A stretch of 64,000 nt of DNA from a bacterium (GTDB lineage: Bacteria; Patescibacteriota; Minisyncoccia; Phycocordibacterales; CALRBL01), in the NCBI GenBank assembly GCA_027487075.1, contig JAIYEG010000006.1, positions 4,468 to 68,467 on the forward strand, in the 5' to 3' direction. Made by a program: the position numbers and the translations under genes. The stretch's first letter is position 1; each line of letters begins with the position of its first letter. Shown here piece by piece: positions 3,575 to 63,243 of this stretch. Below the pieces are notes generated by a model that was not told where the DNA came from, did not search any database, and saw nothing but the letters and a program-made list of their open reading frames with translations.

Positions 3575-3614
3575 TGTGGTCACATTATAGCGTAAAAGAC
3601 CAAGTAGTAAGAGG

Positions 3615-3729
3615 GCTTCTCTGAGATGTTCTTCCGTAAGGAGACTTGCGAGGCTCGACGGAGTGAGCACGAGGAATTTTCTAGTAAGAAAATATCCGTG
3701 CTCCTGGAGGAAGAATATATCAGAGAAGC
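3615..3729. repeat. structured intergenic repeat element, copy A (conserved core inside a locus-specific inverted repeat)
   Basis: Arms GCTTCTCTGAGATGTTCTTCC / GGAAGAATATATCAGAGAAGC flank the core CGACGGAGTGAGCACGAGGAATTTTCTAGTAAGAAAATATCCGTGCTCCTGG. Core is near-identical to the copy at 37468-37535 (opposite strand) and homologous to copies at 11266, 29229, 31342 and 45130. Confidence 0.8.
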
Positions 3730-3775
3730 TGGTTAATACTTTGCATTCTTATGCTTTATGTGGTAATTTCTCCCT

Positions 3776-4719: not shown

Positions 4720-4809
4720 CCATCGCTCCTTACAGGAGCAGTACCCCGATTGGATACTCTGCTTCGGCTCGAATACTCGCCTCGCATAGTATGCTCAATT
4801 TATTCGCTG

Positions 4810-7815: not shown

Positions 7816-8211
7816 ATGAAATATCTCGGTATTGATTTTGGTGACAAACACGTAGGAGTTGCTGTCTCAAACGATGGTGGCACAATGGCGTTCCCGCTCA
7901 CGACGCTTGATGGTGGGACAGGGCTTATAGATGAGGTCTCAAAGCTCATCGAAGAAAAGGGGGTTCAAGCGGTGGTCATCGGGGAATCAAAAGATTTTCA
8001 GGGACAGGACAATAAAATTATGAAGAAAGCTCGCGTATTTGCGGAGGAGCTAGCTCAGAAAACTTCAAAAAAGGTGCCTGTCCCCATTTACTTTGAACCC
8101 GAGTTTATGACTTCAGTAGAGGCGCGACTCATTCAGGGAGGGGGAGAAAAGACGCATGCCTCGGCAGCGGCACTCATCCTCAAGAGTTATCTCGACAGAA
8201 AAAACAATTAA
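7816..8211 (+). CDS. ruvX: Holliday junction resolvase-like protein RuvX/YqgF
   Basis: MKYLGIDFGDKHVGVAVSN... diagnostic YqgF N-terminus. Confidence 0.85.
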   Translation: MKYLGIDFGDKHVGVAVSNDGGTMAFPLTTLDGGTGLIDEVSKLIEEKGVQAVVIGESKDFQGQDNKIMKKARVFAEELAQKTSKKVPVPIYFEPEFMTSVEARLIQGGGEKTHASAAALILKSYLDRKNN

Positions 8212-8556: not shown

Positions 8557-8714
8557 GCAACAGATGGATTGTCAGCATGAAAGAGAAAGAAATACCTAAA
8601 GCAATGTGTTGCGGAGTGCTGGGCACGAGCATAGCAAATTTTTACCAGAAAATTATGCGCGCATTGCGTAGGTATTTTCTTTTTCTCTTTCATGCTGTGA
8701 TATAATTTCTTTCG

Positions 8715-11149: not shown

Positions 11150-11221
11150 GCCCCTGTAGTTCAATGGATAGAACTGCGGACTTCTAAGCCGTCAATCTAG
11201 GTTCGATTCCTAGCGGGGGCA
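11150..11221 (+). tRNA. tRNA-Arg (anticodon TCT)
   Basis: GCCCCTGTAGTTCAATGGATAGAACTGCGGACTTCTAAGCCGTCAATCTAGGTTCGATTCCTAGCGGGGGCA; loop CTTCTAA. Confidence 0.8.
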
Positions 11222-11373
11222 CAAGCCAAGAAATCCAAACCGCTTTGGATTTCGCTGGACTTGTGCCGGCCGGAGCGCGACGGCGCGAGGTGGGGTCGCG
11301 GACATTTTTAGTAAAAAATGATCCGTGACCACAAGTTAAATCTTCAAACAGGGTACTGATCCTGTAAGGATCG
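11222..11373. repeat. composite structured repeat, copy F: tRNA-3' hairpin, GCGCGACGGCGCGAG core, A/T hairpin and UGUAA-loop hairpin
   Basis: GGCACAAGCC...GGACTTGTGCC hairpin; GGAGCGCGACGGCGCGAGG; ACATTTTTAGTAAAAAATGA; CAAACAGGGTACTGATCCTGTAAGGATCG. Confidence 0.75.
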
Positions 11374-11426
11374 ATATATTGATAAAAAACATCTTTTACG
11401 CTACAGTGAGTCGGTCAGTCTAAGAA

Positions 11427-14587: not shown

Positions 14588-14671
14588 GCGCAGGTGTTGA
14601 AACTGGTAGACAAGCACCCTTGAGGTGGGTGTGCCTTAACCGGCGTGGAGGTTCAAGTCCTCTCCTGCGCA
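14588..14671 (+). tRNA. tRNA-Leu (anticodon GAG)
   Basis: GCGCAGGTGTTGAAACTGGTAGACAAGCACCCTTGAGGTGGGTGTGCCTTAACCGGCGTGGAGGTTCAAGTCCTCTCCTGCGCA; long variable arm. Confidence 0.85.
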
Positions 14672-14715
14672 CAAACAAAAGAAATCCCGCAAGGGATTTT
14701 TTTGTTTGTGCGCAG
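14665..14715 (+). terminator. nested terminator: ~17-bp outer stem reusing the tRNA-Leu 3' acceptor strand, with inner AAATCCC-GCAA-GGGATTT hairpin and U-tract
   Basis: CTGCGCACAAACAAAAG ... TTTTGTTTGTGCGCAG are exact reverse complements. Confidence 0.7.
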
Positions 14716-14793
14716 AGCAAGCACCAAGGTGCTTGCGTGAGAGGACTTGAAGCCTGTTTGAGCATGTTGTACGAGCGAAGCGAAGTAGAACAT

Positions 14794-14822
14794 CCAAACA
14801 GGGTACAGGTCCTGTAAGGACC
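14794..14822 (+). repeat. tRNA-downstream UGUAA-loop hairpin motif
   Basis: CCAAACAGGGTACAGGTCCTGTAAGGACC; same motif at 11346-11373 and 4725-4753 (minus strand). Confidence 0.7.
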
Positions 14823-29188: not shown

Positions 29189-29202
29189 ATAGAGGAATAA
29201 AA

Positions 29203-29307
29203 CTTACAAAACCTTTTCGGAAGGAGGCTCGCAGAGCGCGACGGCGCGAGCGTGAAAAATTTTCTAGCAAGAAAATATCTGTACTCCTGAAGAAAAGGTT
29301 TTGTGAA
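29203..29307. repeat. structured intergenic repeat element, copy B
   Basis: Arms CTTACAAAACCTTTTCGGAAGG / CCTGAAGAAAAGGTTTTGTGAA; core GCAGAGCGCGACGGCGCGAGCGTGAAAAATTTTCTAGCAAGAAAATATCTGTACTCC. Confidence 0.8.
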
Positions 29308-29521
29308 TTTTATTTGCTATACTCATTTCATGAACACCGAAGAACGCCTTCTCGCGCTGGAACAAAAGATTGATGCAATGTCAGTAGTGGTAAAAAAGCT
29401 GTACCGTGTTTTTTTGATTACCGTGATTATAAGCGTAGTTGCGTTTGTGCTTCCTTTGATCGGGCTCCTGTTTGCGATTCCATCATTTTTATCTACCTAT
29501 GCAAGTATTTTGGGACAGTAG
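29303..29521 (+). CDS. small hypothetical membrane protein
   Basis: 72 aa with one TM helix; its 5' end lies in repeat copy B, so likely starts at the internal Met (MNTEERL). Confidence 0.4.
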   Translation: MNFICYTHFMNTEERLLALEQKIDAMSVVVKKLYRVFLITVIISVVAFVLPLIGLLFAIPSFLSTYASILGQ

Positions 29522-31310: not shown

Positions 31311-31423
31311 CTAGCACAGAATTCTTACTCGGAGAAAACATTGCGCAAGCGCGACGGCGCGAGCATAAGAATTTTCTACCAAGAAAATATCTGTGTTTTC
31401 GAAGAGTAGAGATTTTGTGCTAG
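31311..31423. repeat. structured intergenic repeat element, copy C (exemplar), filling the whole argS-ileS gap
   Basis: Arms CTAGCACAGAATTCTTACTCGGAGAAAACAT / CTGTGTTTTCGAAGAGTAGAGATTTTGTGCTAG; core TTGCGCAAGCGCGACGGCGCGAGCATAAGAATTTTCTACCAAGAAAATATC. Confidence 0.85.
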
Positions 31424-31432
31424 GATAACCCC

Positions 31433-34400
31433 ATGTACAGCCCTCAAAGAGAGACAGAGATCCTCGATTTCTGGAAGAAACACGACATTTTTAATAAGAG
31501 CCTTGAACGGACGAAGGAGGGAGAACCTTATGTGTTTTACGATGGACCGCCTTTCGCGACGGGGCTTCCGCACGTGGGGCACGTCCTTCCATCGACGATG
31601 AAAGACCTCATGCCACGTTATCAGACCATGCGCGGTCGCTATGTGGCACGCCGATGGGGATGGGATTGTCACGGACTTCCGGTAGAAAACCTTGTCGAGA
31701 AAGAGCTTGGACTCAAAACCAAGAAAGATATTCTTGATCTTGGGATCGAGAAGTTCAACACCGCTGCCAAAAACAGCGTGCTTCGCTATGCCGATCAGTG
31801 GCGCGAGCTGGTACCACGTTTTGGACGATGGGTGGATATGGATCATGACTACCGCACTATGGATGCTGACTACACCAGCTCGGTGTGGAGTGTCTTTTCA
31901 CGCCTTAACGACAAGAAACTTGTCTACGAAGGTTTCAAAGTAATGTATGTCTGTCCTCGTTGCGAAACTAGCCTCTCAAACTTCGAAGTGAATCAGGGAT
32001 ACAAAGACATCACTGATATTTCGGTGTATGTGAAATTCGCGAAGGTGAATGCTGAAGCTGACGCGAATGCTTCAAAAGAACATCTTCTTGCGTGGACCAC
32101 AACGCCATGGACTCTTCCTGGCAATATGGCGCTTGCCGTCGGACGCGATATGGAGTATGTGAAGGTTGAAATCACGGGAGAAGAAGGTGTGGTGGTGCTT
32201 GCAACGTCACGCGTAGAGCACGTACTCAAAGGAAAAGAATATAAGGTCGTAGCAGAGATGAAGGGAAGTGAACTCGTCGGCACTTCATATGAACCTGTGT
32301 TTGATACCTACAAAAATGCTGACCTTCAAAACAAGGCGAATGCATGGAAAGTATACGCAGCTGATTTTGTAACAGATGGTGATGGAACCGGTATCGTGCA
32401 TATTGCTCCTGGATTTGGAGATGATGACCTCAGGCTTTCTCAGGCGGAGCAGATTCCATTTGTGCAGCATGTCGGAATGAATGGCATCATCAAAGATGAA
32501 GTTACTGAATTTGCAGGTCTTCATGCAAAACCAAAAGATGAAAAGAAAGATGAGCATCAAGCGACCGATATTGAAGTGATCAAGTATCTCGCAAAGAAAG
32601 GTGCACTCTTCTCAAAAGAAAAAATTGTCCACTCATATCCGCACTGTTGGCGATGCAGTACACCACTTCTTAACTTCGCTACTACCTCGTGGTTCGTGAA
32701 GGTGACTGATCTTAAAGACAAACTCGTTGCAGAGAATAATAAGATTCACTGGGTGCCAGAAGCGGTAGGTGCAAACCGCTTTGGAAAGTGGCTCGAAGGT
32801 GCTCGCGATTGGGCGGTGTCACGAGCCCGTTTTTGGGGTGCACCGATTCCCGTATGGCGAAGTGCTGACGGAAAAACTATAGAGTGCGTGAGCTCCCTTG
32901 ATGATTTGAAGAATAAGATTCGACGCAACACTTATATCGCCATGCGTCATGGTGAGTCTGAACACAATGTAAAAGGCGTGCTTGATTCATCACTCAAGAG
33001 TACCTCGCATCTCACCGACAAAGGAAAAGAAGAAGTAAAAGCAACGGCCGCTGAAATCGGCATGGTTGATGTGATATATATTTCGCCACTGCTTCGCACG
33101 AAAGAAACGGCAAAGATTGTTGAAACAACGATCGGTTATACAGGAAAGGTGATAGTTGATCCGCGACTTGCAGAGTTTGATACTGGCGACTTCGACAAGA
33201 AGCCTCGTGAAGCATTCTTTGCCTACCTCGATACACATCGAACAGGCTCATGGCTTGATATGAAGATTCCAGGTGGGGAAGGATACAAGGATGTACGCAA
33301 TCGCGTATCGGAATTTTTGTATGACATCGATGCACAGCATGAAGGTAAGCGCATCCTCATCATCACTCATGAAGCGCTTGTAAAAATGATCGAAGCGGTA
33401 TCGCTCGGTGGTACTGCAAAAGATGTGACTCATGTATGGAATCAGGGTGGGGTAGCGACTGCGGATACACGCACTATCGACTTTGCCGCTCTTCCAAAAA
33501 ATGCTGACCACGAGCTTGATCTGCATCGTCCCTATATCGACGAGATCACTTGGAACGGCTTGAAGCGAGTTCCTGATGTGTTTGATTGCTGGTTTGAATC
33601 GGGCTCAATGCCATTTGCCTCGCATCAGACCAATTACCCTGCAGAGTTTATTGCGGAAGGTCTCGATCAGACGCGCGGATGGTTCTACTCAATGCTGGTG
33701 CTCGGTGTTGCGCTCGAAGATGCATCTCCCTACAAAAACGTGGTAGTGAATGGGCTGATCCTTGCAGAAGACGGCAAGAAAATGTCAAAGAGTCTTAACA
33801 ATTATCCGCCTCTTGATAAGATTCTCGAGAAGTATGGAGTCGATTCACTGCGCTACTTCCTCCTCTCATCACCTTCAGTGAAGTCTGAAGACACCGCATT
33901 TTCTGAGAAGAGCCTGGATGAAGTGATCAAGAAGCATTTCAATCGTCTGTACAATGTCATCTCTTTGTATGACACCTTCGACTCAACGGATCTTCCGACG
34001 GTGCAATCAGAGCATGTACTCGATCAGTGGATTGTGGCACTGCTTCGCAAGACCGCTGAAACTATCACCTATCACCTTGATCGTTACGAATTCGATAAGG
34101 CAACCAAGCCACTCGGTGACTTCATCGAAGATCTTTCGGTGTGGTATATCCGTCGTTCACGCGATCGCTTTAAGAGTGATGATGTGATAGATAAAGCGGC
34201 AGCACTTGCGACGACGCGCTATGTGCTTATTGAGTTCGCAAAACTCGCGGCGCCATTTGTGCCATTCATTGCCGAAGATGTGTATCTTCATATGACGAAG
34301 GGAATGACTGATGCACAAGAAAGTGTGCATCTTGAAAGCTGGCCAACACTCGGCGCTCCCGATCAACTCGCACTCGCAAAGATGGCAGAGACACGTAAGA

Positions 34401-34861
34401 TTGTGTCGATGGCGCTTGAGGCTCGTGCAAAGCGCACCATCAAAGTACGCCAGCCACTCTCACGACTTATGCTTCGCACCGATGAATACGATATTGCCGA
34501 TGATAGTGCTTATGCCGAACTCATCAAAGATGAAGTGAATGTAAAAGAAGTGATTCTTGATAGTGCGATCGAAGATGAGGTGATGCTCGATATCACGCTT
34601 ACCCCAGAACTCATTCAGGAAGGAGTGGTGCGTGAGCTCATGCGTTTCGTGCAGGATATGCGCAAGAACGCAGGACTTTCTCCAAAAGATACGATTGTAC
34701 TCACGGTACATGCTGGTGAAAACGAAAAAGCAATCATCGAACGTTTTAAAGAAGAGCTCATGAAGACAGCGCGTATTGCAGATATTGTGTACGCTCACAC
34801 TGATGGCGAAAAACTTACCGTCGAAGACTACCACTTCACACTTTCATTGAAGACGTTGTAA
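31433..34861 (+). CDS. ileS: isoleucyl-tRNA synthetase carrying an inserted histidine-phosphatase-family domain
   Basis: HVGHVLPSTMKD (HIGH), CPRCETSLS zinc knuckle, WTTTPWTLPGN editing motif, HIAPGFGDDD, YPHCWRCSTPL, KMSKSLNN; 1142 aa single ORF. Confidence 0.9.
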   Translation: MYSPQRETEILDFWKKHDIFNKSLERTKEGEPYVFYDGPPFATGLPHVGHVLPSTMKDLMPRYQTMRGRYVARRWGWDCHGLPVENLVEKELGLKTKKDILDLGIEKFNTAAKNSVLRYADQWRELVPRFGRWVDMDHDYRTMDADYTSSVWSVFSRLNDKKLVYEGFKVMYVCPRCETSLSNFEVNQGYKDITDISVYVKFAKVNAEADANASKEHLLAWTTTPWTLPGNMALAVGRDMEYVKVEITGEEGVVVLATSRVEHVLKGKEYKVVAEMKGSELVGTSYEPVFDTYKNADLQNKANAWKVYAADFVTDGDGTGIVHIAPGFGDDDLRLSQAEQIPFVQHVGMNGIIKDEVTEFAGLHAKPKDEKKDEHQATDIEVIKYLAKKGALFSKEKIVHSYPHCWRCSTPLLNFATTSWFVKVTDLKDKLVAENNKIHWVPEAVGANRFGKWLEGARDWAVSRARFWGAPIPVWRSADGKTIECVSSLDDLKNKIRRNTYIAMRHGESEHNVKGVLDSSLKSTSHLTDKGKEEVKATAAEIGMVDVIYISPLLRTKETAKIVETTIGYTGKVIVDPRLAEFDTGDFDKKPREAFFAYLDTHRTGSWLDMKIPGGEGYKDVRNRVSEFLYDIDAQHEGKRILIITHEALVKMIEAVSLGGTAKDVTHVWNQGGVATADTRTIDFAALPKNADHELDLHRPYIDEITWNGLKRVPDVFDCWFESGSMPFASHQTNYPAEFIAEGLDQTRGWFYSMLVLGVALEDASPYKNVVVNGLILAEDGKKMSKSLNNYPPLDKILEKYGVDSLRYFLLSSPSVKSEDTAFSEKSLDEVIKKHFNRLYNVISLYDTFDSTDLPTVQSEHVLDQWIVALLRKTAETITYHLDRYEFDKATKPLGDFIEDLSVWYIRRSRDRFKSDDVIDKAAALATTRYVLIEFAKLAAPFVPFIAEDVYLHMTKGMTDAQESVHLESWPTLGAPDQLALAKMAETRKIVSMALEARAKRTIKVRQPLSRLMLRTDEYDIADDSAYAELIKDEVNVKEVILDSAIEDEVMLDITLTPELIQEGVVRELMRFVQDMRKNAGLSPKDTIVLTVHAGENEKAIIERFKEELMKTARIADIVYAHTDGEKLTVEDYHFTLSLKTL
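32920..33500 (+). other. in-frame histidine phosphatase (PGM/CobC/SixA superfamily) domain inserted in IleRS between PIPVW and DVFDCWFESG
   Basis: YIAMRHGESEHN (RHG catalytic His), ISPLLRTKETAKIV, IPGGEGYKDVRNRV, ILIITHEALVKMI (second His) in canonical order. Confidence 0.8.
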
Positions 34862-34880
34862 CTAGGTACACACATATCAT

Positions 34881-35462
34881 ATGCATACCATCTTCGAGAC
34901 CGATTGCTTCATTTTAAGAAGCGTTCCGTCAGGGGAGGCGAATAAAGTCTTCGAGCTCTTCACCAAAGAGTTTGGATTGCTTCGTGCGACCGCTCAAGGG
35001 GTGCGCCATCTTAAGTCAAAACTTCGTTACACACTCACTGATTTTGCGTTGGTGCGTGTGTCACTTGTACGCGGAAAAGAATATTGGCGCATTACCACCG
35101 CACTCAAAATAGATGATGCAATGACGGCAATCCCTGATCGTGCCTCACGTGAGGTGTTGGTGCGTATTGCGGCACTCCTTCGGCGATTGCTTCAAGGGGA
35201 AGAATCCCATCCCGAATTATTTGTATTGATGCTCACTGTATTTGAAATACTTAAGGTTGCCTCAACGGAACAACGTATGGCGATAGAAGAAGTGGCAGTG
35301 CTCCGTGTGCTGACCTTACTTGGATATGTGCAAGATGATCCGATGCTGCGTGAGCTTGCACAAGGGCAGGAATTTTCCGTGGCAGTGCTCGAACAAGCAA
35401 CACTGCTTCGAAAACAAATGGTGACGGAAATCAATCGCGCGCTACGGGCATCGAGTTTGTGA
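34881..35462 (+). CDS. recO: DNA repair protein RecO-like (short form without zinc finger)
   Basis: ETDCFILRSVPSGEANKVFELFTKEFGLLRATAQGVRHLKSKL resembles the RecO N-terminal OB domain. Confidence 0.6.
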   Translation: MHTIFETDCFILRSVPSGEANKVFELFTKEFGLLRATAQGVRHLKSKLRYTLTDFALVRVSLVRGKEYWRITTALKIDDAMTAIPDRASREVLVRIAALLRRLLQGEESHPELFVLMLTVFEILKVASTEQRMAIEEVAVLRVLTLLGYVQDDPMLRELAQGQEFSVAVLEQATLLRKQMVTEINRALRASSL

Positions 35463-35475
35463 TATACTTTTTTGT

Positions 35476-37422
35476 ATGAATGATCTTGAGCGACAACGTG
35501 AAGAAGAGGAGGAGCGAAAAAGTCGTATCGACTCTGCGCGCGACAATTTGTATCGCCCAGGAGGTCCAAGTGTGATTCATCGTGAATCAGATCCGCGATT
35601 GCCGCAGGAAGAAGAGGCGCTCCCATCTCAAACATTCGCTCCACGTGTACCGCGCACCTTCGATGAACAAAAGTTTGCCTCAAAAGCAACTACGATCTTC
35701 CGTCGCATGTTCTTGGGAGCTCTGGTGTTTTTCGTAATTGCAATTGGCGTAGCAGGGTACATGTATTACTACGGCAACACCACTATCTCCGCAAAAAATA
35801 TTGAAGTCGATATTGTTGCACCACCGTCTGTGCCTTCAAGTGACACCTTTTCGTATGATGTGAGTATTCAAAATGGCAACAATGGTGATCTTCTTAACAC
35901 CGCACTCGTCATTGATTACCCAGAGGGCACGCGTAGCGTCGAAGATAATACGAAGCCGTTGGTGAGTGAGCGTATTGAGCTCGGTACCTTGTCGAAGGGG
36001 GCAGTAGTACGCCGCACATTGTCTGCGCGATTCTTTGGAGAAGAGAATGCGCAAAAAGATGTGCAGGTCCGAATCGAATATCAGGTGCCTGGATCTAATG
36101 GGCAGTTTAGTAAAGATGCCGGATTTAGTGTGTTCTTGAGACTCGCCCCTGTCGTGCTCACCATCGATGCGCTCAAAGAAATCAATAACAACCAAGAGGT
36201 GACATTGGTTGCTAAAGTGGTGTCAAACTCAAACAATACCTTAAGCAATCTCGCTCTCAATGTGACATATCCCTTCGGTTTTACGTACAAGAGCTCGAAT
36301 CTCGAAGTTGATGGACGAAAAGGAGAATTTCCACTCGGTGAACTCAAGCCAAATGAGACAAAGACGGTTGAGATTGTGGGAGATATCAGTGGGCAAAGCA
36401 ATGAAGATAAAGTATTTAAATTTAACGTAGGTACGGCAAGTAATGCAGATTCAACACGCGTGAGCACCTCACTTGCAATGCATGTGCATGACATGGTGAT
36501 TCGTGGAGATTTCTTGGCAACGTCGATCACCTTCGCAGATCGTAAGGATTATGTGATTGTTGGTGATAAGCTTCGAGGGACTATACAATGGCAGAATACG
36601 CTCAATGTGCCAGTCAACGATGCTAAGTTCACGCTTAAGATTGACGGGGACTTGATTGATAAAGATAATATCCGCGCAACTCAGGGATATTACGACTCAA
36701 ATCGCTCACTTATTGAATGGAATAAGAATATTGATCCTCGACTTGAAGAAATAAAGCCTGGTGAAAAGGGAGAATTCGCATTCGCTGTTGATCTTAAAGG
36801 TTTCGACGAAGCTCTTGCGGAACGGATTAGTAATCCAAAAATTAATTTGAAGTTCGATGTGCATGCGCGACGTATCAATGAGAATGATGTGACAGAAGAC
36901 ATTGAATCATCATTTGAGAGATCAGTGCCCATGGTGTCAGATGTGGTACTTACAGGCAAGACACTTTATAGCAGTGGTCCCTTGAAAAACAGTGGCCCTA
37001 TACCTCCAAAGGTTGAAACCAAGACCACGTATACCGTAGCACTCACCCTTACCAACACGGTTAATGAAGTATCAAATGGAGAGCTCACCCTTACGCTTCC
37101 CAACTATGTAACCTATGAAGGCGAGGTGACGCCCTCAAGTGAACGTATTTTATGGAATAGTAGCACCAAACAGCTTCGTTGGAGTGTGGGGTCATTGCCC
37201 GTGCGCACAGGATTTGGCACCGCGCCACGCACACTCAACTTTAAAGTGAGTGTATTGCCAAGTCGAAGTCAAATTGGAAAGACGTTGAATCTGGTGAATA
37301 ATGTTAGCTTTGTAGGACGTGATAATTTCGCAAATGCAGAGGTGAAGGCATCAGGAAATATTGTGACAACTTCGGTGCAAGATCCCGGAGCTGGATTTGG
37401 CACAGGGCAAGTGGTACAGTAA
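35476..37422 (+). CDS. large membrane-anchored surface protein with repeated beta-rich (Ig/CARDB-like) domains
   Basis: Charged N-terminus, one TM helix, then ~540 aa of Thr/Ser/Asn/Val-rich repeats. Confidence 0.55.
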   Translation: MNDLERQREEEEERKSRIDSARDNLYRPGGPSVIHRESDPRLPQEEEALPSQTFAPRVPRTFDEQKFASKATTIFRRMFLGALVFFVIAIGVAGYMYYYGNTTISAKNIEVDIVAPPSVPSSDTFSYDVSIQNGNNGDLLNTALVIDYPEGTRSVEDNTKPLVSERIELGTLSKGAVVRRTLSARFFGEENAQKDVQVRIEYQVPGSNGQFSKDAGFSVFLRLAPVVLTIDALKEINNNQEVTLVAKVVSNSNNTLSNLALNVTYPFGFTYKSSNLEVDGRKGEFPLGELKPNETKTVEIVGDISGQSNEDKVFKFNVGTASNADSTRVSTSLAMHVHDMVIRGDFLATSITFADRKDYVIVGDKLRGTIQWQNTLNVPVNDAKFTLKIDGDLIDKDNIRATQGYYDSNRSLIEWNKNIDPRLEEIKPGEKGEFAFAVDLKGFDEALAERISNPKINLKFDVHARRINENDVTEDIESSFERSVPMVSDVVLTGKTLYSSGPLKNSGPIPPKVETKTTYTVALTLTNTVNEVSNGELTLTLPNYVTYEGEVTPSSERILWNSSTKQLRWSVGSLPVRTGFGTAPRTLNFKVSVLPSRSQIGKTLNLVNNVSFVGRDNFANAEVKASGNIVTTSVQDPGAGFGTGQVVQ

Positions 37423-37608
37423 AGGGGACAGGCACCTTTTTTCGTGAAGCAGAGCACCACATAATCGTCAGTGTCCTTACAGGAGCACGGATATTTTCTT
37501 ACTAGAAAATTCCTCGTGCTCGCTCCGTCGAAGCCCCACAAGGCTCCTTTCAGGACACCGCCGATTATGCGTTTCTCTGTCTTTAAAAAGGTGCCTGCCC
37601 CCTTAATT
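37422..37608. repeat. structured intergenic repeat element, copy E (core on minus strand)
   Basis: Arms AAGGGGACAGGCACCTTTTTT / AAAAAGGTGCCTGCCCCCTT; reverse-complement core CGACGGAGCGAGCACGAGGAATTTTCTAGTAAGAAAATATCCGTGCTCCTGTAAGGAC is near-identical to copy A. Confidence 0.85.
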
Positions 37609-37612
37609 TTAT

Positions 37613-39160
37613 ATGGAACAACTTATTTCACTCTGTAAGCGACGCGGGTTTATTTACCAAGGTTCTGAAATCTATGGCGGTCTTGCGGGTACCTGGGATT
37701 ACGGGCCGCTCGGCGTCGCGCTCAAGAAGAATATCGAGAACTTGTGGTGGAAGCGCTTCGTGCTCGACCGTGAGGATATGTATGGTGTCGACGCAGCGCT
37801 TCTTATGAATCAGGAAGTCTGGAAATCTTCAGGTCATGTTGCGGGTTTTTCTGACCCTCTTGTTGAATGTAAGGTTTGTAATAAAAGATATAGAGTTGAT
37901 AATATCGTTGACCAAGAAAAATACTCAGAATATCTTAATTTGTTATTTAAACTTAACAGAGAAAAACTTGATCAAGGCGATCATGCTCGTATCATTGATA
38001 AGAATATTAAAGAAATTGAAAATGAATTTAAAAAAGTTTTTGTTAAGAAAAGAATCGCTGAATTAAATCTCGATTTGCAATCAATGATATTAAATGAGGT
38101 TCTTGAAGCAAGAAAGTATATTGGTACATGGGCACAATACTTTTTAAATAATTCAGTTAAATGTCAGTCTTGTGGTGAGCAAAAGTGGGGAATGCCAAGA
38201 CAATTTAATATGATGTTTAAAACAAATGTTGGTATTACAGAAGATGAAAAATCTATTTCATATCTTCGTCCTGAAACTGCACAGGGAATGTTTGTGAACT
38301 TCAAAAACATTCTTGATTCATTTCATCCAAAATTGCCGTTTGGTATGGCGCAGATTGGTAAAGCATTCCGCAACGAAATCGCACCTCGTGATTTTATTTT
38401 CCGCGTGCGTGAGCTTGAGCAGATGGAAATCGAGTATTTCGTGAAGCCTGAGACATGGGAAGAGCACTTCGAGCTGTTCCGCAAAGACATGTGGAGCTTC
38501 GTGAGCGATATTGGTCTTCCTGAAGCAAAAGTGCACGAGCTCGAAGTTGCTCCTGAAGATCGTGCGCACTACTCTAAGCGTACGATTGATTTTGAATTTG
38601 ATTTTCCGTTTGGAAAGAAAGAATTGTATGGCCTTGCATACCGTACTGACTACGATTTGAAGCAACATAGTGAAGGTTCAAAAGTTGATTTGTCATATTT
38701 CGATGAAGAGACCAAGTCTCGTTTTATTCCTCACTGCATTGAGCCATCATTTGGTATCGGCCGCACATTGCTTGCCGTGCTTTCGTCTGCATACACTGAA
38801 GACGAGCTTGGAGGAGAGAAGCGTACATATTTGAAGTTGTCTCCGAAGGTGGCTCCGTTCGTTGCTGCGGTCTTTCCACTTTTGAAGAATAAGCCAGAGC
38901 TTGTGGTTAAAGCGCGAGAAGTATTCGATGTGCTCCGCAAGAACCCAGCATTTTCAGGACGTATTGCATTCGATGATAACGGCAACATCGGTAAGCGCTA
39001 CCGACGTCAGGATGAAATTGGTACGCCGTTTTGTATTACCATCGACTTCGACACGCTCGGTGAGAATCCAGAACACAAAGATACTGTGACGTTGCGCTAT
39101 CGCGATACCGGAGAGCAGGTGAGAGTGGCGATTGCAGAGCTTGCTGCGAAACTCGTCTAA
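37613..39160 (+). CDS. glyQS: glycyl-tRNA synthetase, alpha2 homodimeric type
   Basis: RRGFIYQGSEIYGGLAGTWDYGPLGVALKKNI N-terminus; motif 2 FRNEIAPRDFIFRVRELEQMEIEYF; Cys4 insertion domain. Confidence 0.9.
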   Translation: MEQLISLCKRRGFIYQGSEIYGGLAGTWDYGPLGVALKKNIENLWWKRFVLDREDMYGVDAALLMNQEVWKSSGHVAGFSDPLVECKVCNKRYRVDNIVDQEKYSEYLNLLFKLNREKLDQGDHARIIDKNIKEIENEFKKVFVKKRIAELNLDLQSMILNEVLEARKYIGTWAQYFLNNSVKCQSCGEQKWGMPRQFNMMFKTNVGITEDEKSISYLRPETAQGMFVNFKNILDSFHPKLPFGMAQIGKAFRNEIAPRDFIFRVRELEQMEIEYFVKPETWEEHFELFRKDMWSFVSDIGLPEAKVHELEVAPEDRAHYSKRTIDFEFDFPFGKKELYGLAYRTDYDLKQHSEGSKVDLSYFDEETKSRFIPHCIEPSFGIGRTLLAVLSSAYTEDELGGEKRTYLKLSPKVAPFVAAVFPLLKNKPELVVKAREVFDVLRKNPAFSGRIAFDDNGNIGKRYRRQDEIGTPFCITIDFDTLGENPEHKDTVTLRYRDTGEQVRVAIAELAAKLV

Positions 39161-44905: not shown

Positions 44906-45106
44906 ATGAAAAAATGCTACTTCTCACAGAATAATATCAAGCATGTAGATTACAAGGATACGGACTTGCTCAAAAAGTTCCTTAATCCTCATGCTCGTCT
45001 TCTTTCAAGCAAGAAGACTGGTGTGAATGCTAAGCACCAGCGCAAGCTTGCTAACGCTGTAAAGCGCGCTCGCTTCATGGCTCTCATTCCGTATATTAGT
45101 CGATAA
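44906..45106 (+). CDS. rpsR: 30S ribosomal protein S18
   Basis: VDYKDTDLLKKFLNPHARLLSSKKTGVNAKHQRKLANAVKRARFMALIPY. Confidence 0.9.
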   Translation: MKKCYFSQNNIKHVDYKDTDLLKKFLNPHARLLSSKKTGVNAKHQRKLANAVKRARFMALIPYISR

Positions 45107-45220
45107 ACTAAACAAAATACCCCGAAAGAAACATTGCGCAGCCTTGCGGCGAGCATAGGAATTTTTCAGAAGAAAAATATCCGTGTTTCTGAAGGGGTAT
45201 TTTGTTTATTTATCGCTGAC
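45099..45220. repeat. structured intergenic repeat element, copy D, spanning the convergent rpsR-efp gap
   Basis: Arms GTCGATAAACTAAACAAAATACCCC / GGGGTATTTTGTTTATTTATCG; core CATTGCGCAGCCTTGCGGCGAGCATAGGAATTTTTCAGAAGAAAAATATCCGTGTTTC; left arm overlaps the rpsR stop. Confidence 0.8.
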
Positions 45221-59401: not shown

Positions 59402-59428
59402 GTCTATAAAGGCTCTTTCGGGAGATCG

Positions 59429-59468
59429 TAAAACCCTCTTGGAACCATGGTTCCAAGAGGGTTTTACC
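59429..59468 (+). terminator. strong hairpin terminator (17-bp perfect stem)
   Basis: TAAAACCCTCTTGGAACC-ATG-GTTCCAAGAGGGTTTTA. Confidence 0.75.
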
Positions 59469-59514: not shown

Positions 59515-60377
59515 CACTTCTACATCGCAAATATGTCACTCACCTCAAAACCCAAGCGCCTCGAATAACGCCCCATTGTTGAGTGTTATTCAAGACCGCT
59601 CGGAAGAGCGGTTTTTCTTTAAAACGATAGTTTTAAAGAAGATATAATCGCAAGCGAGGGGTCATGTTACGATGTCGATTTTTGACAAATCCATCCCGCC
59701 CCGACACTTTTGTTCAGAAGCCGCAAGGCCTATGAACAACTGGAGGTCTTTTCAGTTGGAGGCGGAAAGGTAATAGAAAGTAAATGTAAGTAATTGTGGT
59801 CTTTAAATTTCCTAATAGGAAATTAAGAGCATATGGTGGATGCCTTGACTTAAAGTGACGATGAAGGACGCTGCGTAGCTGCGATATGCTTCGGGGAGGT
59901 GCCAAGCAACCTTTGATCCGGAGATCTCCGAATGGGGAAACCCTACCGCTTCGGCGGTAATCCACGCGCTAGACGTGTGGAGGTGTTACCTGGGGAAGTA
60001 AAACATTTCAGTACCCAGAGGAATAGAAAAGAATGTCACATTGTGACGATATTTCGTTAGTAGCGGCGAGCGAAAACGAAAGAGCCCAAACCGAACTCCT
60101 CTATTGAAGGCGCTTCGTAGACTCAGCGCGCAAGTGCTGTGTCCGCGAGTTCCTTCGATAGGGTAGTTCGGGGTTGTAAGGTAGTGATCGTAATTTATTA
60201 CAGAGAGTTACAAATTATATTGTTAGCAGAATGAGCTGGAAAGCTCGGCCCAAGCAGGTGATAGCCCTTTACGCGAAAACAATATAACTCTCATCGCTAT
60301 TCTTGAGTACCTCGAGACACGAATGGCTCGGGGGAATCCAGCGGAACTAACCGCTAAGGCTAAATACACTTTAAGAT

Positions 60378-60420
<43 letters not shown>

Positions 60421-61835
60421 GGAGAGGGGAGTGAAATAGAACTGAAACCATATGTTTACAAGGAGTCGAAGAGGGTATTTATATCCTCGACGGCGTGCCT
60501 ATTGAAGAATGAGCCAACGAGTTGTTGCATGCGGCCCGGCTAAGTCCTAAGGGACGAAGTCATAGGGAAACCGAGTATTAATAGTGCGTTAGTCGTATGC
60601 ATCAGACCCGAAGCCAAGTGAGCTTGCCTTGCGCAGGGTGAAGTTCGCCGAAAGGCGGATGGAGGCCCGAACCGTTTTGCCGTTCAACACATTCGGATGA
60701 CGTGAGGTAAGAAGTGAAAAGCTAATCGAACTTGGTAATAGCTGGTTCTCTCCGAAATAGCTTTTGGGCTAGCGTCGGATGTTCCTTTTGGGGGTAGAGC
60801 ACTGGAAGGTCTCGACAGGGAGAAATCTCGCGAGACCTATCAAACTCCGAATACCAAAAGTTAATAGTCCGGCAGTTAGACCGTGGGGGCTAAGCTCCAC
60901 TGGTCAAAAGGGAAACAGCCCTTGATCTCAAGTTAAGGTCCCAAAATCTACGTTAAGTACACTTAAGGTGGTAGAATTTCTCTGACAATGAGGAGGTTGG
61001 CTTAGAAGCAGCCATCCTTTAAAGATAGCGTAACAGCTCACTCATCCAGAGATTCCGCGCCGCAAATGATCGGGGTTAAACGTAGTACCGAAGCTGAGGG
61101 CTTTCCGTGTGTTCGCACATGGGGAGCGGTAGGAGAGTGTTCCATTCGCGATGAAGGCAAAGGGGTGACCCATGCTGGAGCGCTTGGAAGTAAGAATGTT
61201 GGCACAAGTAACCACAATGCGGGTGAAATCCCCGCACGTCGAAAGATCCAGGTTTCCTTCGCTACGACAATCGGCGAAGGGTTAGTCGGCCCTAAGGGGA
61301 TGGCGAAAGCCGCACCCGATGGACACATGGTTAATATTCCATGACCGTTATATATTGCGATGGGAGGACGGAGAGTAGTATGTGTTGCGTATTATTGGAT
61401 TTACGTTCGTGTTGTAAGGATGAGTTCTAGGCAAATCCGGAACTCGCTAATCCAAGCAAAGCGAAAATGTCCGCCGAAAGACGGATAAATTATGCAAAGC
61501 ACTCTTCCAAGAAAAATCTCTAAGCTTCAAATATATAATGACCGTACCGCAAACCGACACAGGTGATCAGGGCGAGTAGCCCAAGACGAACGAGTGAGAA
61601 GTCCCCAAGGAACTCGGCAAAAAAGCAGCCGTAACTTCGGAATAAGGCTTGCCCCATTTCAGCAATGAAAGGGGGCCGCAGCTAAAGTATCTCTGGCAAC
61701 TGTTTACCAAAAACACAGCTCCCTGCGAACTCGTAAGAGGATGTATAGGGGGTGACACCTGACCAATGCCCGAAGGTCAAACGATGGCGGTGCGACACTA
61801 TTTATTTAGTGGCAAGCTGACCGTTGTAAGCCCGG

Positions 61836-61886
<51 letters not shown>

Positions 61887-62440
61887 TGGTAAGTTCAGAC
61901 GCGCACGAATGGTGTAATGACTGGAGAACTGTCTCGGGGACCTGCTCGGTGAAAATACAGTAGCGGTGAAGATGCCGCTTACCTGCAGTTAGACGAAAAG
62001 ACCCCAGAAGCTTTACTGCAACTTGGTATTGAATATACATTTCTGCTGCGTAGCATAGTGGTGAGACTTTGAAGTATCGATTTCGGTTGGTATGGAGTCG
62101 TCAGTGAAATAGCCATCTGTATTTGTGTATATTCTAACCTCAACGGCAAAAACGATGAGAGACAGTATCTGGCGGGCAGTTTTAGTGGGGCGCTATCCTC
62201 CCAAAAAGTAACGGAGGAGTTTATTAAGGTCAGCTAGGCGCGAATGGAAACCGTGCCGATAGTGTAATGGCACAAGCTGGCTTGACTGTGAGACGTATTT
62301 GTCAAACAGGCGCGAAAGCGGAACATAGTGAACCGACCATAGGCATTAGACGCCGTGGAAGATTATCAGACAAAAGCTACTCTGGGGATAACAGGCTGGT
62401 TGTATCTAAGAGTCCAAATCGACGATACAGTTCGGCACCT

Positions 62441-63243
62441 TAACACATCGGGGTGCCTAGGAAAGTAATTTCCTACAAAAAATCTTGGCTTATAACGGTG
62501 GACTCCATGTATAATTAATACATGGACAATACCGTGGGAAGTTTAACCAAATTGCAAAGATCAGTGATCATCGGAACCCTTTTAGGTGATGGATATGTGA
62601 GAATTGTTCCAAGAAGAGTACATGCTTTTCTTGAAATAAATCATTCAATCACTCAAAAGGAATACGTTGACTGGAAATATGAAATGTTAAAATCGGTATG
62701 CAAGTCTGGACCAATCCAAAGAAAAGGGAATGGAACAAGAATTGCATATAGATTTACGACAAGACAAAGCAAAGAATTAACTTCGCTTTATCAAGCTTTT
62801 TATCAAAATGGTAAAAAGATTATTCCGGAAATATTGGAAATTGATCCAATTTCACTCGCAGTGTGGTTCATGGATGATGGAAGTAGATGCAGAGAAAGAG
62901 ATGTCTATCTGAATACTCAACAATTTGATGTTGAAGATCAGAAAAAACTCATCTCTTTTCTGCAAAAATGGGGAATCGAGAGTACATTGAATAAAGATAA
63001 AATCTATTGGAGAATTCGAATCAAGAAATCTTCAATACATACCTTTTTCAAAATAATTTCTCCCCATGTTATTCCATCTATGAATTACAAAATTGGTTAT
63101 AACCCTGTAGAGACTTGTATTGAAGAGCAATTTCTTCATACAGAGCTGCTTCCAAGGGAAGCGGTTAACACGCCAACTCCTTTCTGATCAGAAAGGATGA
63201 AGATATAGTCCGATCCTTCTAGTAATAGAAGCAAAATACGACA
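62441..63243 (+). mobile_element. group I-like intron in 23S rRNA (site homologous to E. coli ~2449) carrying a homing-endonuclease ORF
   Basis: Exon junction ...TTCGGCACCT | intron | CGATGTCGGCTC...; intron ends in G. Confidence 0.75.
62522..63187 (+). CDS. double-motif LAGLIDADG homing endonuclease (intron-encoded)
   Basis: GTLLGDGYV and [19 protein letters not shown] motifs; 221 aa ORF wholly within the rRNA intron. Confidence 0.8.

Follow-up and report, generated by a model that had tools for sequence, protein, structure and literature searches.

What separates the gene for glycyl-tRNA synthetase (glyQS) from its upstream neighbour in a Patescibacteria genome, and does it govern the synthetase? 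The question is raised by a 64-kb stretch of DNA (hereafter the window; contig JAIYEG010000006.1, positions 4,468 to 68,467, of assembly GCA_027487075.1), in which the gap between the open reading frames (ORFs) 35476–37422 and 37613–39160 is one long self-complementary sequence, here called copy E. We consider it likely that copy E is one inserted copy of a non-coding palindromic repeat family, situated in an operon transcribed from a leaderless-type promoter at the upstream, DUF11-like gene. The family itself probably behaves like selfish palindromic elements of the kind represented by Rickettsia palindromic elements (RPEs), REP sequences and miniature inverted-repeat transposable elements (MITEs), because whole hairpins land in all gene arrangements, about one in ten of them in frame within a gene.

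A long hairpin fills the gap upstream of glyQS

The upstream ORF encodes a protein of 648 amino acids (aa) with a weak match to DUF11. The downstream ORF is a glycyl-tRNA synthetase (GlyRS) of 515 aa, with a class II synthetase core and an anticodon-binding domain; database searches returned one 100%-identical entry and many Parcubacteria homologues, and the start codon assigned to glyQS is backed by an N-terminus, MEQLISLCKRRG, that is conserved in relatives. The RNA fold of 37415–37615 has an energy of −84.7 kcal/mol for the plus strand and of −102.6 kcal/mol for the minus strand (z of about −11 in both cases), and 0 of 200 shuffled sequences folded as well. The well-paired stem runs from 37422/37423 to 37603/37604, with weaker pairing (85%) reaching out to 37415–37611. 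We placed the whole hairpin, whose sense strand is the minus strand, at 37423–37603, using the folds and the inverted-repeat arms. The first-pass annotation, a reading of the letters by a model, had reported an element filling the space between a surface-protein gene and glyQS, and the folds, the ORFs and the identity of the synthetase bear this out; its extent of 37422–37608 is also about right. It had further called this copy the longest and inverted, and copy E is indeed the longest in the window and the only one with its core on the minus strand. At 183–187 nucleotides (nt), it falls within the top ~5% of family hairpins (median 115, maximum 215), which makes it long, not unique.

The outermost arms of copy E (37423–37441 and 37585–37603; AGGGGACAGGCACCTTTTT / AAAAAGGTGCCTGCCCCCT) pair over 19 base pairs (bp), in which a single A·C mismatch on the plus strand becomes G·U on the minus strand. 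The inner arms are imperfect, with 37 nt at 37450–37486 being 81% complementary to 37543–37579; the left one contains GTCCTTACAGGAGC (37473–37486) and the right one GCTCCTTTCAGGAC (37543–37556). These two segments had been taken for a pair of extra TCCT-loop-AGGA hairpins, but they are the two strands of one stem: the minimum-energy folds join GTGTCCT to AGGACAC and AGGAGC to GCTCCT, and TAC (37478–37480) opposes TTC (37549–37551) in a 3 × 3 internal loop (GUA/GAA on the minus strand). Nor are they additions to this copy, because other high-scoring window copies carry the same G-N-A/G-N-A loop. On each side, an imperfect stem of ~60 bp flanks the conserved core.

This core (37476–37553, minus strand), made up of a stem, P2, and a three-way junction, matches model positions 1–76 of R1, our covariance model of the family, with 79.5 bits (E = 1.4e-18), and its structure is that given by covariation in 103 sequences. 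Within it, P3 is a GC-rich hairpin with tandem G·A pairs and P4 is an AUUUUCU-AGUA-AGAAAAU hairpin with a bulged A. The TAA stop codon of the DUF11-like gene (37420–37422, plus strand), which is at the same position in relatives, stands at one foot of the hairpin. At the other foot, a 9-nt AU-rich spacer, TAATTTTAT, leads into the glyQS start codon at 37613–37615 (37604–37615 together, plus strand), an assignment based on the sequence and on the relatives. Among the arms of all seven window copies, only those of copy E match anything else in the 64 kb: a segment of the ruvX coding sequence 29 kb away (8067–8085, plus strand; codons KKVPVP) is identical at 19 of 19 positions to the reverse complement of the outer left arm (37424–37442).

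Copy E belongs to a dispersed family with a conserved centre and free arms

The core pattern has five exact matches in the window, and five copies is also what the first-pass annotation had counted. R1 finds seven, adding 8597–8671 and 11258–11337, with chance matches to the model in the window scoring at most 15 bits. Six of the seven copies are on the plus strand and one (copy E) on the minus strand. Their arms, outer arms included, have no sequence similarity to each other, and for every one of them the fold in sense orientation is the more stable.

We scanned a species-representative genome collection with the core pattern. Among the matches listed, at least 120 stretches carried it, nearly all from Patescibacteria (mostly Paceibacteria), with carriers including Yonath-, Wildermuth-, Taylor-, Nomura-, Zambryski- and Vogelbacteria, Paceibacterota, and metagenome-assembled genomes (MAGs) labelled Saccharibacteria; about 108 of the listed stretches are true family members. 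The family consensus reads [P2] U(U/A)GCGAG-CGCG-ACGG-CGCG-AGC(A/U)CGAGGAAUUUUUC-AGCA-GAAAAAUAUCCGU [P2']. Its conserved centre of ~60 nt, present in more than 100 Patescibacteria genomes, is a three-way junction of stem P2 and hairpins P3 and P4, in which P3 contains tandem G·A pairs and a U·C mismatch and P4 a bulged A. In 103 aligned cores, 91.5% of cells were paired, compared with at most 58% when the partners were slid, and there were 541 double-sided changes. Three stretches of the core are invariant (GGAAUUUU, AAAAUAUCCGU and the GAC loop). The arms, in contrast to this centre, are specific in sequence to each locus while remaining mutually complementary, over 18–81 aligned pairs. Their mismatches are of the G·U type on the sense strand in 96 cases versus 40 on the other strand, and therefore one particular single strand, either RNA or single-stranded DNA, is the form that folds. 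Both the gene maps and the greedy script used to set hairpin boundaries are approximate, and the script shortens copy E.

Rfam contained no matching family, either for the whole window at the gathering threshold or for three element regions at E values up to 10; at relaxed E values there were chance matches of hairpin or miRNA type and, on the wrong strand, a sub-threshold, 28-bit match to a translation enhancer from a plant virus. Literature searches, full text included, returned no description of palindromic elements or matching structured RNAs from Patescibacteria or the candidate phyla radiation (CPR). The family is apparently undescribed, and it is specific to Patescibacteria, mainly Paceibacteria/Parcubacteria. 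In some places two or three copies are adjacent or nested and share arms (L099 42–486, L085 3120–3333 and L053 1226–1460).

Copy E interrupts a tight gene junction

Four relatives (L122, L123, L124 and L125), whose GlyRS is 70–75% identical to that of the window, have the gene order ileS (with a histidine-phosphatase insert), recO, DUF11-like gene, glyQS, M16 peptidase gene. In 4/4 of them, the stop codon of the DUF11-like gene is 4–6 nt from the glyQS ATG with no element in between, and both the C-terminal codons of the DUF11-like gene and the N-terminus of GlyRS align with the window. R1 found no convincing copy anywhere in 41 kb of these relatives. Considering the same short gap in four syntenic relatives, copy E is a lineage-specific insertion into a tight junction, and the shared order together with the 4–6-nt gap likewise makes glyQS ancestrally the second gene of an operon. 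A TAA borders copy E on either side (37420–37422 and 37604–37606); if copy E and one TAA are removed, a 6-nt spacer is left, as in the relatives. A match of 3 nt is weak evidence of target duplication, and no comparable flanking repeat was evident at copies B, C and D.

Whole hairpins are inserted, including within genes

Eleven of 109 copies lie within long open frames, six in sense and five in antisense orientation. SecA, PcrA/UvrD, phosphoglucomutase, an M23 peptidase and PheT are among their hosts, the PheT copies of three species sharing one position, and the protein sequence to either side of the copy has homology in Pfam or PDB. In the PcrA/UvrD of L110, an insert of 48 residues relative to the solved PcrA starts exactly at the start of the left arm, and the insert in the SecA motor domain is ~70 residues long. 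Translated, such copies would give peptide segments such as ...ARARGIFQQKNIR... (PcrA/UvrD) and ...EHGYFSAEKFLVL... (PheT). As the core is conserved in nucleotides and is crossed by at least four different reading frames, its conservation must lie at the level of nucleic acid.

Outside genes, copies are found in tandem, convergent and divergent contexts, and across the family orientation is independent of the flanking genes (opposite/opposite 34, opposite/same 20, same/same 19 and same/opposite 17, from a crude map). Two copies in L050 share 28–32 nt of each arm at 96–97% identity, and shared arms also occur between several MAGs. Because the PcrA/UvrD insert starts at the left arm and the L050 copies have arms in common, the arms belong to the inserted unit, so that on these sequence comparisons it is whole hairpins that are inserted or duplicated. 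Copy density is uneven: the window has 7 in 64 kb and the 41 kb of the relatives none, and other carriers have about one additional copy for each 35 kb.

We considered several routes by which hairpins of this kind could arise or spread. A phage vector was rejected: three pattern matches in IMG/VR were not confirmed by R1, and there was no BLAST match in the phage collection. A composite transposon, which paired copies in L105 and L050 might have formed, was rejected too, since the genes between the pairs are housekeeping or glycosyl-transferase genes with no transposase among them. The idea that arms are inverted copies of local ancestral sequence fails for copy E and for the PcrA/UvrD insertion, where both arms are new; it fits part of the right arm of copy C, which overlaps the conserved −10 region of ileS.

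Probable expression of glyQS across the element

At least 13 window genes are preceded, 6–8 nt from their start codon, by an extended −10 box (TGnTAnnnT), compared with a chance expectation of ~0.5 (e.g., 3761–3769, 8698–8706, 29314–29322, 31415–31423 and 35460–35468). The last of these (TGATATACT, plus strand) lies 7 nt before the ATG of the DUF11-like gene (35476) and is conserved in L122 and L124; in relatives, the box is kept before ileS, the 63-aa gene and the DUF11-like gene. A −10 box this close to the start codon implies leaderless mRNAs, which would explain the general lack of ribosome-binding sites, and the lineage therefore appears to use leaderless mRNAs without Shine-Dalgarno sites. 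Our literature searches on leaderless translation in Patescibacteria returned nothing relevant.

The box at 35460–35468 is likely to be the promoter of a DUF11–glyQS transcript. Before glyQS there is no extended −10 box, and a simple promoter scan found no site within copy E. With a promoter at the DUF11-like gene and none at glyQS, the synthetase gene is most likely co-transcribed through copy E, which would be antisense in that mRNA. The first-pass annotation had left two options, expression signals inside the element or transcription through it; the 4–6-nt junction of the relatives favours the second. Its premise, that no room remains outside the element for a promoter or ribosome-binding site, is weaker than it sounds, as window genes use a −10 box 6–8 nt from the start. 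What does not survive is the implied control region specific to glyQS, since copy E belongs to a dispersed repeat that occurs at hundreds of unrelated loci, in both orientations and inside genes. A scan for consensus intrinsic terminators gave no match at copy E. The foot of its hairpin is GC-rich and is followed by UUAAUUUUAU, and partial termination at this foot and U-rich tail is possible, as is cleavage by RNase III.

A proposed explanation: a tolerated insertion

In the explanation that we favour, copy E entered the operon just after the stop codon of the DUF11-like gene, ahead of the 4–6-nt spacer that leads to glyQS. Its near-perfect hairpin would then keep that stop codon and the glyQS AUG, which is 9 nt past the stem, adjacent in the folded mRNA. 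Such adjacency could let termination-reinitiation, or initiation at the AU-rich unstructured start, still work, and the insertion would be tolerated. The conserved centre may be recognised by trans-acting machinery as folded single-stranded DNA or RNA, or it may be homogenised by gene conversion.

Several observations weigh against this explanation or leave it incomplete. The closest relative has only 75% GlyRS identity, so that the insertion is seen relative to other species and not as a polymorphism within one. No mobilising enzyme was found, and no transposase was present beside the copies inspected (the neighbours of some copies were scanned). Relative to GC skew, sense strands in other genomes coincide with the C-rich strand by 68:31; in the window they coincide with the G-rich one by 6:1. 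At copy E itself, the foot and the following UUAAUUUUAU could end a share of the transcripts, a drawback if an essential gene has no promoter of its own, and it is from sequence that we infer both co-transcription and reinitiation there. Even where sites are orthologous, sequence is kept much more closely in the core than in the arms. In the pheT copies of three species (L027, L034 and L117) the core is near-constant while the arms diverge with compensatory changes, and the orthologous copies L019 575–650 and L039 972–1047 differ over ~130 nt in just two base pairs, which are compensatory and cap P4 (UC/GA versus CU/AG). The latter pattern suggests gene conversion by another copy, or selection in place. 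A dead selfish insertion would not be conserved in this manner unless by gene conversion or selection in situ, and the family may have a function for the host.

A bolder proposal goes further, and we hold it only tentatively, as a minority possibility. Here the family would represent a novel type of nucleic-acid element in CPR bacteria, mobile or self-maintaining, in which the junction is a module recognised by lineage-specific machinery. The arms would be extended by copying host sequence (compare the ruvX-derived arm of copy E) and kept complementary by correction within the palindrome, and operon junctions and essential genes could be colonised undisrupted because the hairpin joins its flanks. 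In the strongest version of this mobile-element proposal, the hairpin may actively support translational coupling, or be processed, in organisms with leaderless mRNAs.

Alternative explanations

Could the host instead have adopted copy E as operon punctuation, that is, as an intrinsic terminator or attenuator, or an RNase III site, that sets the DUF11:glyQS ratio or trims the 5' end of glyQS for leaderless-type translation? The GC-rich stem foot followed by a U-rich tract would suit such a role, as would the placing of the hairpins, which begin 0–17 nt from the upstream stop codon at copies B, C, D, E and G, end just before the next gene's −10 box at B, C and G, and across loci lie at most 15 nt from the stop codon in 45/122 cases. 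The ordinary terminators of this genome are also long hairpins, and L122 has a long hairpin that lacks the core at the site of copy B. However, no uniform role in a transcript fits copies that lie between divergent promoters (copy A), within coding sequence in both directions, and as often antisense as sense. The relatives manage with a junction of 4–6 nt, the terminator scan was empty at copy E, and a terminator before an essential promoter-less gene would be harmful. We regard punctuation as unlikely. Rather less probable again is that the family serves the host at the DNA level, its folded or duplex core being a binding or recombination site for, say, a protein of the nucleoid, of replication or of recombination, much as REP/BIME sequences bind gyrase and IHF, with the place of copy E before glyQS being incidental. 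The invariant stretches of the core do look like sequence-specific recognition, and the core is conserved regardless of reading frame and orientation, is biased in strand relative to GC skew, and is kept at orthologous sites while the arms drift. Yet copy number varies strongly among related genomes, no partner protein was identified, and the G·U-type asymmetry together with the non-canonical motifs favours a single-stranded form over duplex DNA.

We give still less credence to copy E as a small-RNA gene on the minus strand, whose product would be processed to a three-way-junction RNA and/or short RNAs derived from the duplex, with the outer arm antisense to ruvX mRNA. The minus-strand fold is more stable than the plus-strand fold by 18 kcal/mol, the outer arm matches ruvX at 19/19 positions, and the minus strand has a TAAAAT hexamer immediately ahead of the hairpin; but an arm matches elsewhere in the 64 kb for only 1/7 window copies, the upstream regions of the other copies have no promoter motif in common, and copies inside genes and empty sites in relatives argue against a gene of fixed function. 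The reading that the locus most readily invites, a cis-regulatory leader specific to glyQS (T-box-like, or another riboswitch or attenuator sensing tRNA-Gly or glycine), has its position directly upstream of glyQS in its favour, and glyQS is T-box regulated in Firmicutes. We nevertheless judge it extremely improbable and effectively refuted: there is no match to the T-box (RF00230) or to any other Rfam family even at E values up to 10, the conserved strand of copy E is antisense to glyQS, the same core occurs at many unrelated loci, and the element is absent before glyQS in four relatives. Two further candidates were rejected on architecture. An archaeal bulge-helix-bulge intron does not fit, as the 3-nt loops face each other and are not staggered by 4 bp, and as in-gene copies keep the frame. 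TIGR-Tas guide units form arrays beside Tas genes, with variable spacers between box C/D motifs and variable palindromic flanks (PMC12045711), whereas members of this family are scattered and do not vary in their interior.

Other copies and features of the window

The remaining six copies all have their cores on the plus strand. Copy A (core 3634–3710; 80.8 bits with R1) lies between the divergent genes ruvA and rpsT, neighbours assigned by Pfam, within a hairpin at ~3613–3731. Copy G (core 8597–8671, arms 8573–8588 and 8682–8697; 43.6 bits) is between a gene with a tRNA-binding domain and pilM. Copy D (core 45122–45195, arms 45106–45133 and 45184–45211; 58.4 bits) is between the convergent genes rpsR and efp.

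Copy B (core 29217–29293, arms 29196–29226 and 29284–29314; 72 bits) separates a dUTPase gene from the 63-aa gene. At the orthologous site after the dUTPase gene, L122 has at 690–775 a hairpin with a 22-bp stem and a different 39-nt interior (GGAAGGGAAUCUGGUCCGCAGGACUAGGGAAUUCC), which may be another hairpin family or an ancestral terminator. Copy C (core 31329–31405, arms 31311–31340 and 31394–31423; 67.9 bits) is between argS and ileS, and its right arm ends within the −10 box of ileS. The ileS gene itself (31433–34861) carries a histidine-phosphatase (PF00300) insert at about residues 503–663, which divides the class I catalytic domain, and the same PF00300-in-IleRS architecture is present in relatives (L122 3048–6527, L124 and L125).

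Copy F (core 11258–11337; 42.2 bits) lies between the genes for tRNA-Arg and tRNA-Val. The 3' trailers of tRNA-Arg (11218–11267) and tRNA-Leu (14664–14716) form hairpins of ~20 bp that take in the final bases of the acceptor stem; as the 3' strand of the tRNA-Arg trailer hairpin is the 5' strand of P2 in copy F, these two pairings are mutually exclusive. A second short repeat stands beside tRNA genes at 4722–4771 (minus), 11333–11375 (plus) and 14776–14820 (plus). It has the form ..CAAACAGGGUAC.G.UCCUGUAAGGA.C.. with a UCCU-GUA-AGGA hairpin, is without an Rfam match, and has a 13-mer, GCUCCUGUAAGGA, in common with copy E. Near the end of the window, a perfect 40-nt palindrome (59428–59467; 20-bp arms with no loop) lies ~350 nt upstream of the 23S rRNA gene, whose match at 59813–62497 covers 2685 nt compared with the 2925 positions of the bacterial model, indicating a shortened rRNA.

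Implications and comparison with known systems

CPR genomes are among the most streamlined known, and the repeat occupies ~1.4% of this 64-kb stretch, with relatives in frame in SecA, PheT and PcrA/UvrD of many species. The family would be a second independent case, after Rickettsia, of palindromic DNA invading the essential genes of reduced genomes. Its architecture of a conserved junction with free arms was missed by existing annotation of repeats and RNA families, and it may account both for long hairpins between genes and for puzzling inserts in the proteins of CPR bacteria; R1 can be used to annotate it. For glyQS, the outcome is that a striking structure directly before the gene is not a synthetase-specific regulator. 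The family also raises the questions of what moves such hairpins, and of how a lineage that appears to use leaderless mRNAs expresses genes across them.

Several known systems resemble the element in part. The T-box leader of Firmicutes glyQS is likewise a structured element directly upstream of the gene, but copy E is without T-box sequence or specifier architecture, has its conserved strand on the wrong strand, is one of many copies and is absent in relatives. Integron attC sites are folded single-strand structures of a recombination type, are conserved partly in structure and are found at the 3' ends of genes; in contrast to this family, it is their outer R/L boxes that are conserved and their centre that varies, and they occur in arrays next to an integrase. 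The intervening sequences (IVSs) of 23S and 16S rRNA are sporadic extended hairpins inside a functional gene, with a stem that joins the flanks. IVSs are confined to rRNA and are cut out by RNase III without religation, whereas family copies in genes keep open frames, which argues for translation rather than excision.

Closer likenesses are found among dispersed bacterial repeats. MITEs such as the Correia elements of Neisseria, ERIC, BOX and RUP are non-autonomous, can be co-transcribed to give long RNA hairpins, and may carry or disrupt expression signals; they differ in having conserved terminal inverted repeats and defined target-site duplications, where this family has variable termini and only the possible TAA...TAA at copy E. 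The REP/BIME/REPIN-RAYT system shares with it dispersed palindromes that fold as single strands, strand asymmetry, both orientations, non-autonomy and an apparent lack of notable target duplications. In REPs, however, the palindrome itself is conserved, with a 5' tetranucleotide, is 20–40 nt long and is strictly extragenic, while here the arms vary and 10% of copies are in genes; the RAYT gene (IS200/IS605-like Y1) is flanked by REPs, and no transposase was among the scanned genes beside copies of this family.

By analogy, the closest counterpart of the family appears to be the RPEs. Compared by description, RPE copies are alike over their full length, whereas here only the ~60-nt centre is conserved and the arms are specific to the locus; the host of RPEs is Rickettsia, and here it is a member of the Patescibacteria with a Paceibacteria-type genome, so different a lineage that kinship in sequence would not be expected. 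Neither kind of element has an adjacent transposase. Both are short (~100–200 bp), self-complementary, non-coding repeats present in multiple copies in a small reduced genome, and both are found between genes, beside RNA genes, and in frame within protein genes, essential ones included, where they add a peptide segment. Such in-frame insertion is a trait of the family, of which copy E, itself intergenic, is one member.

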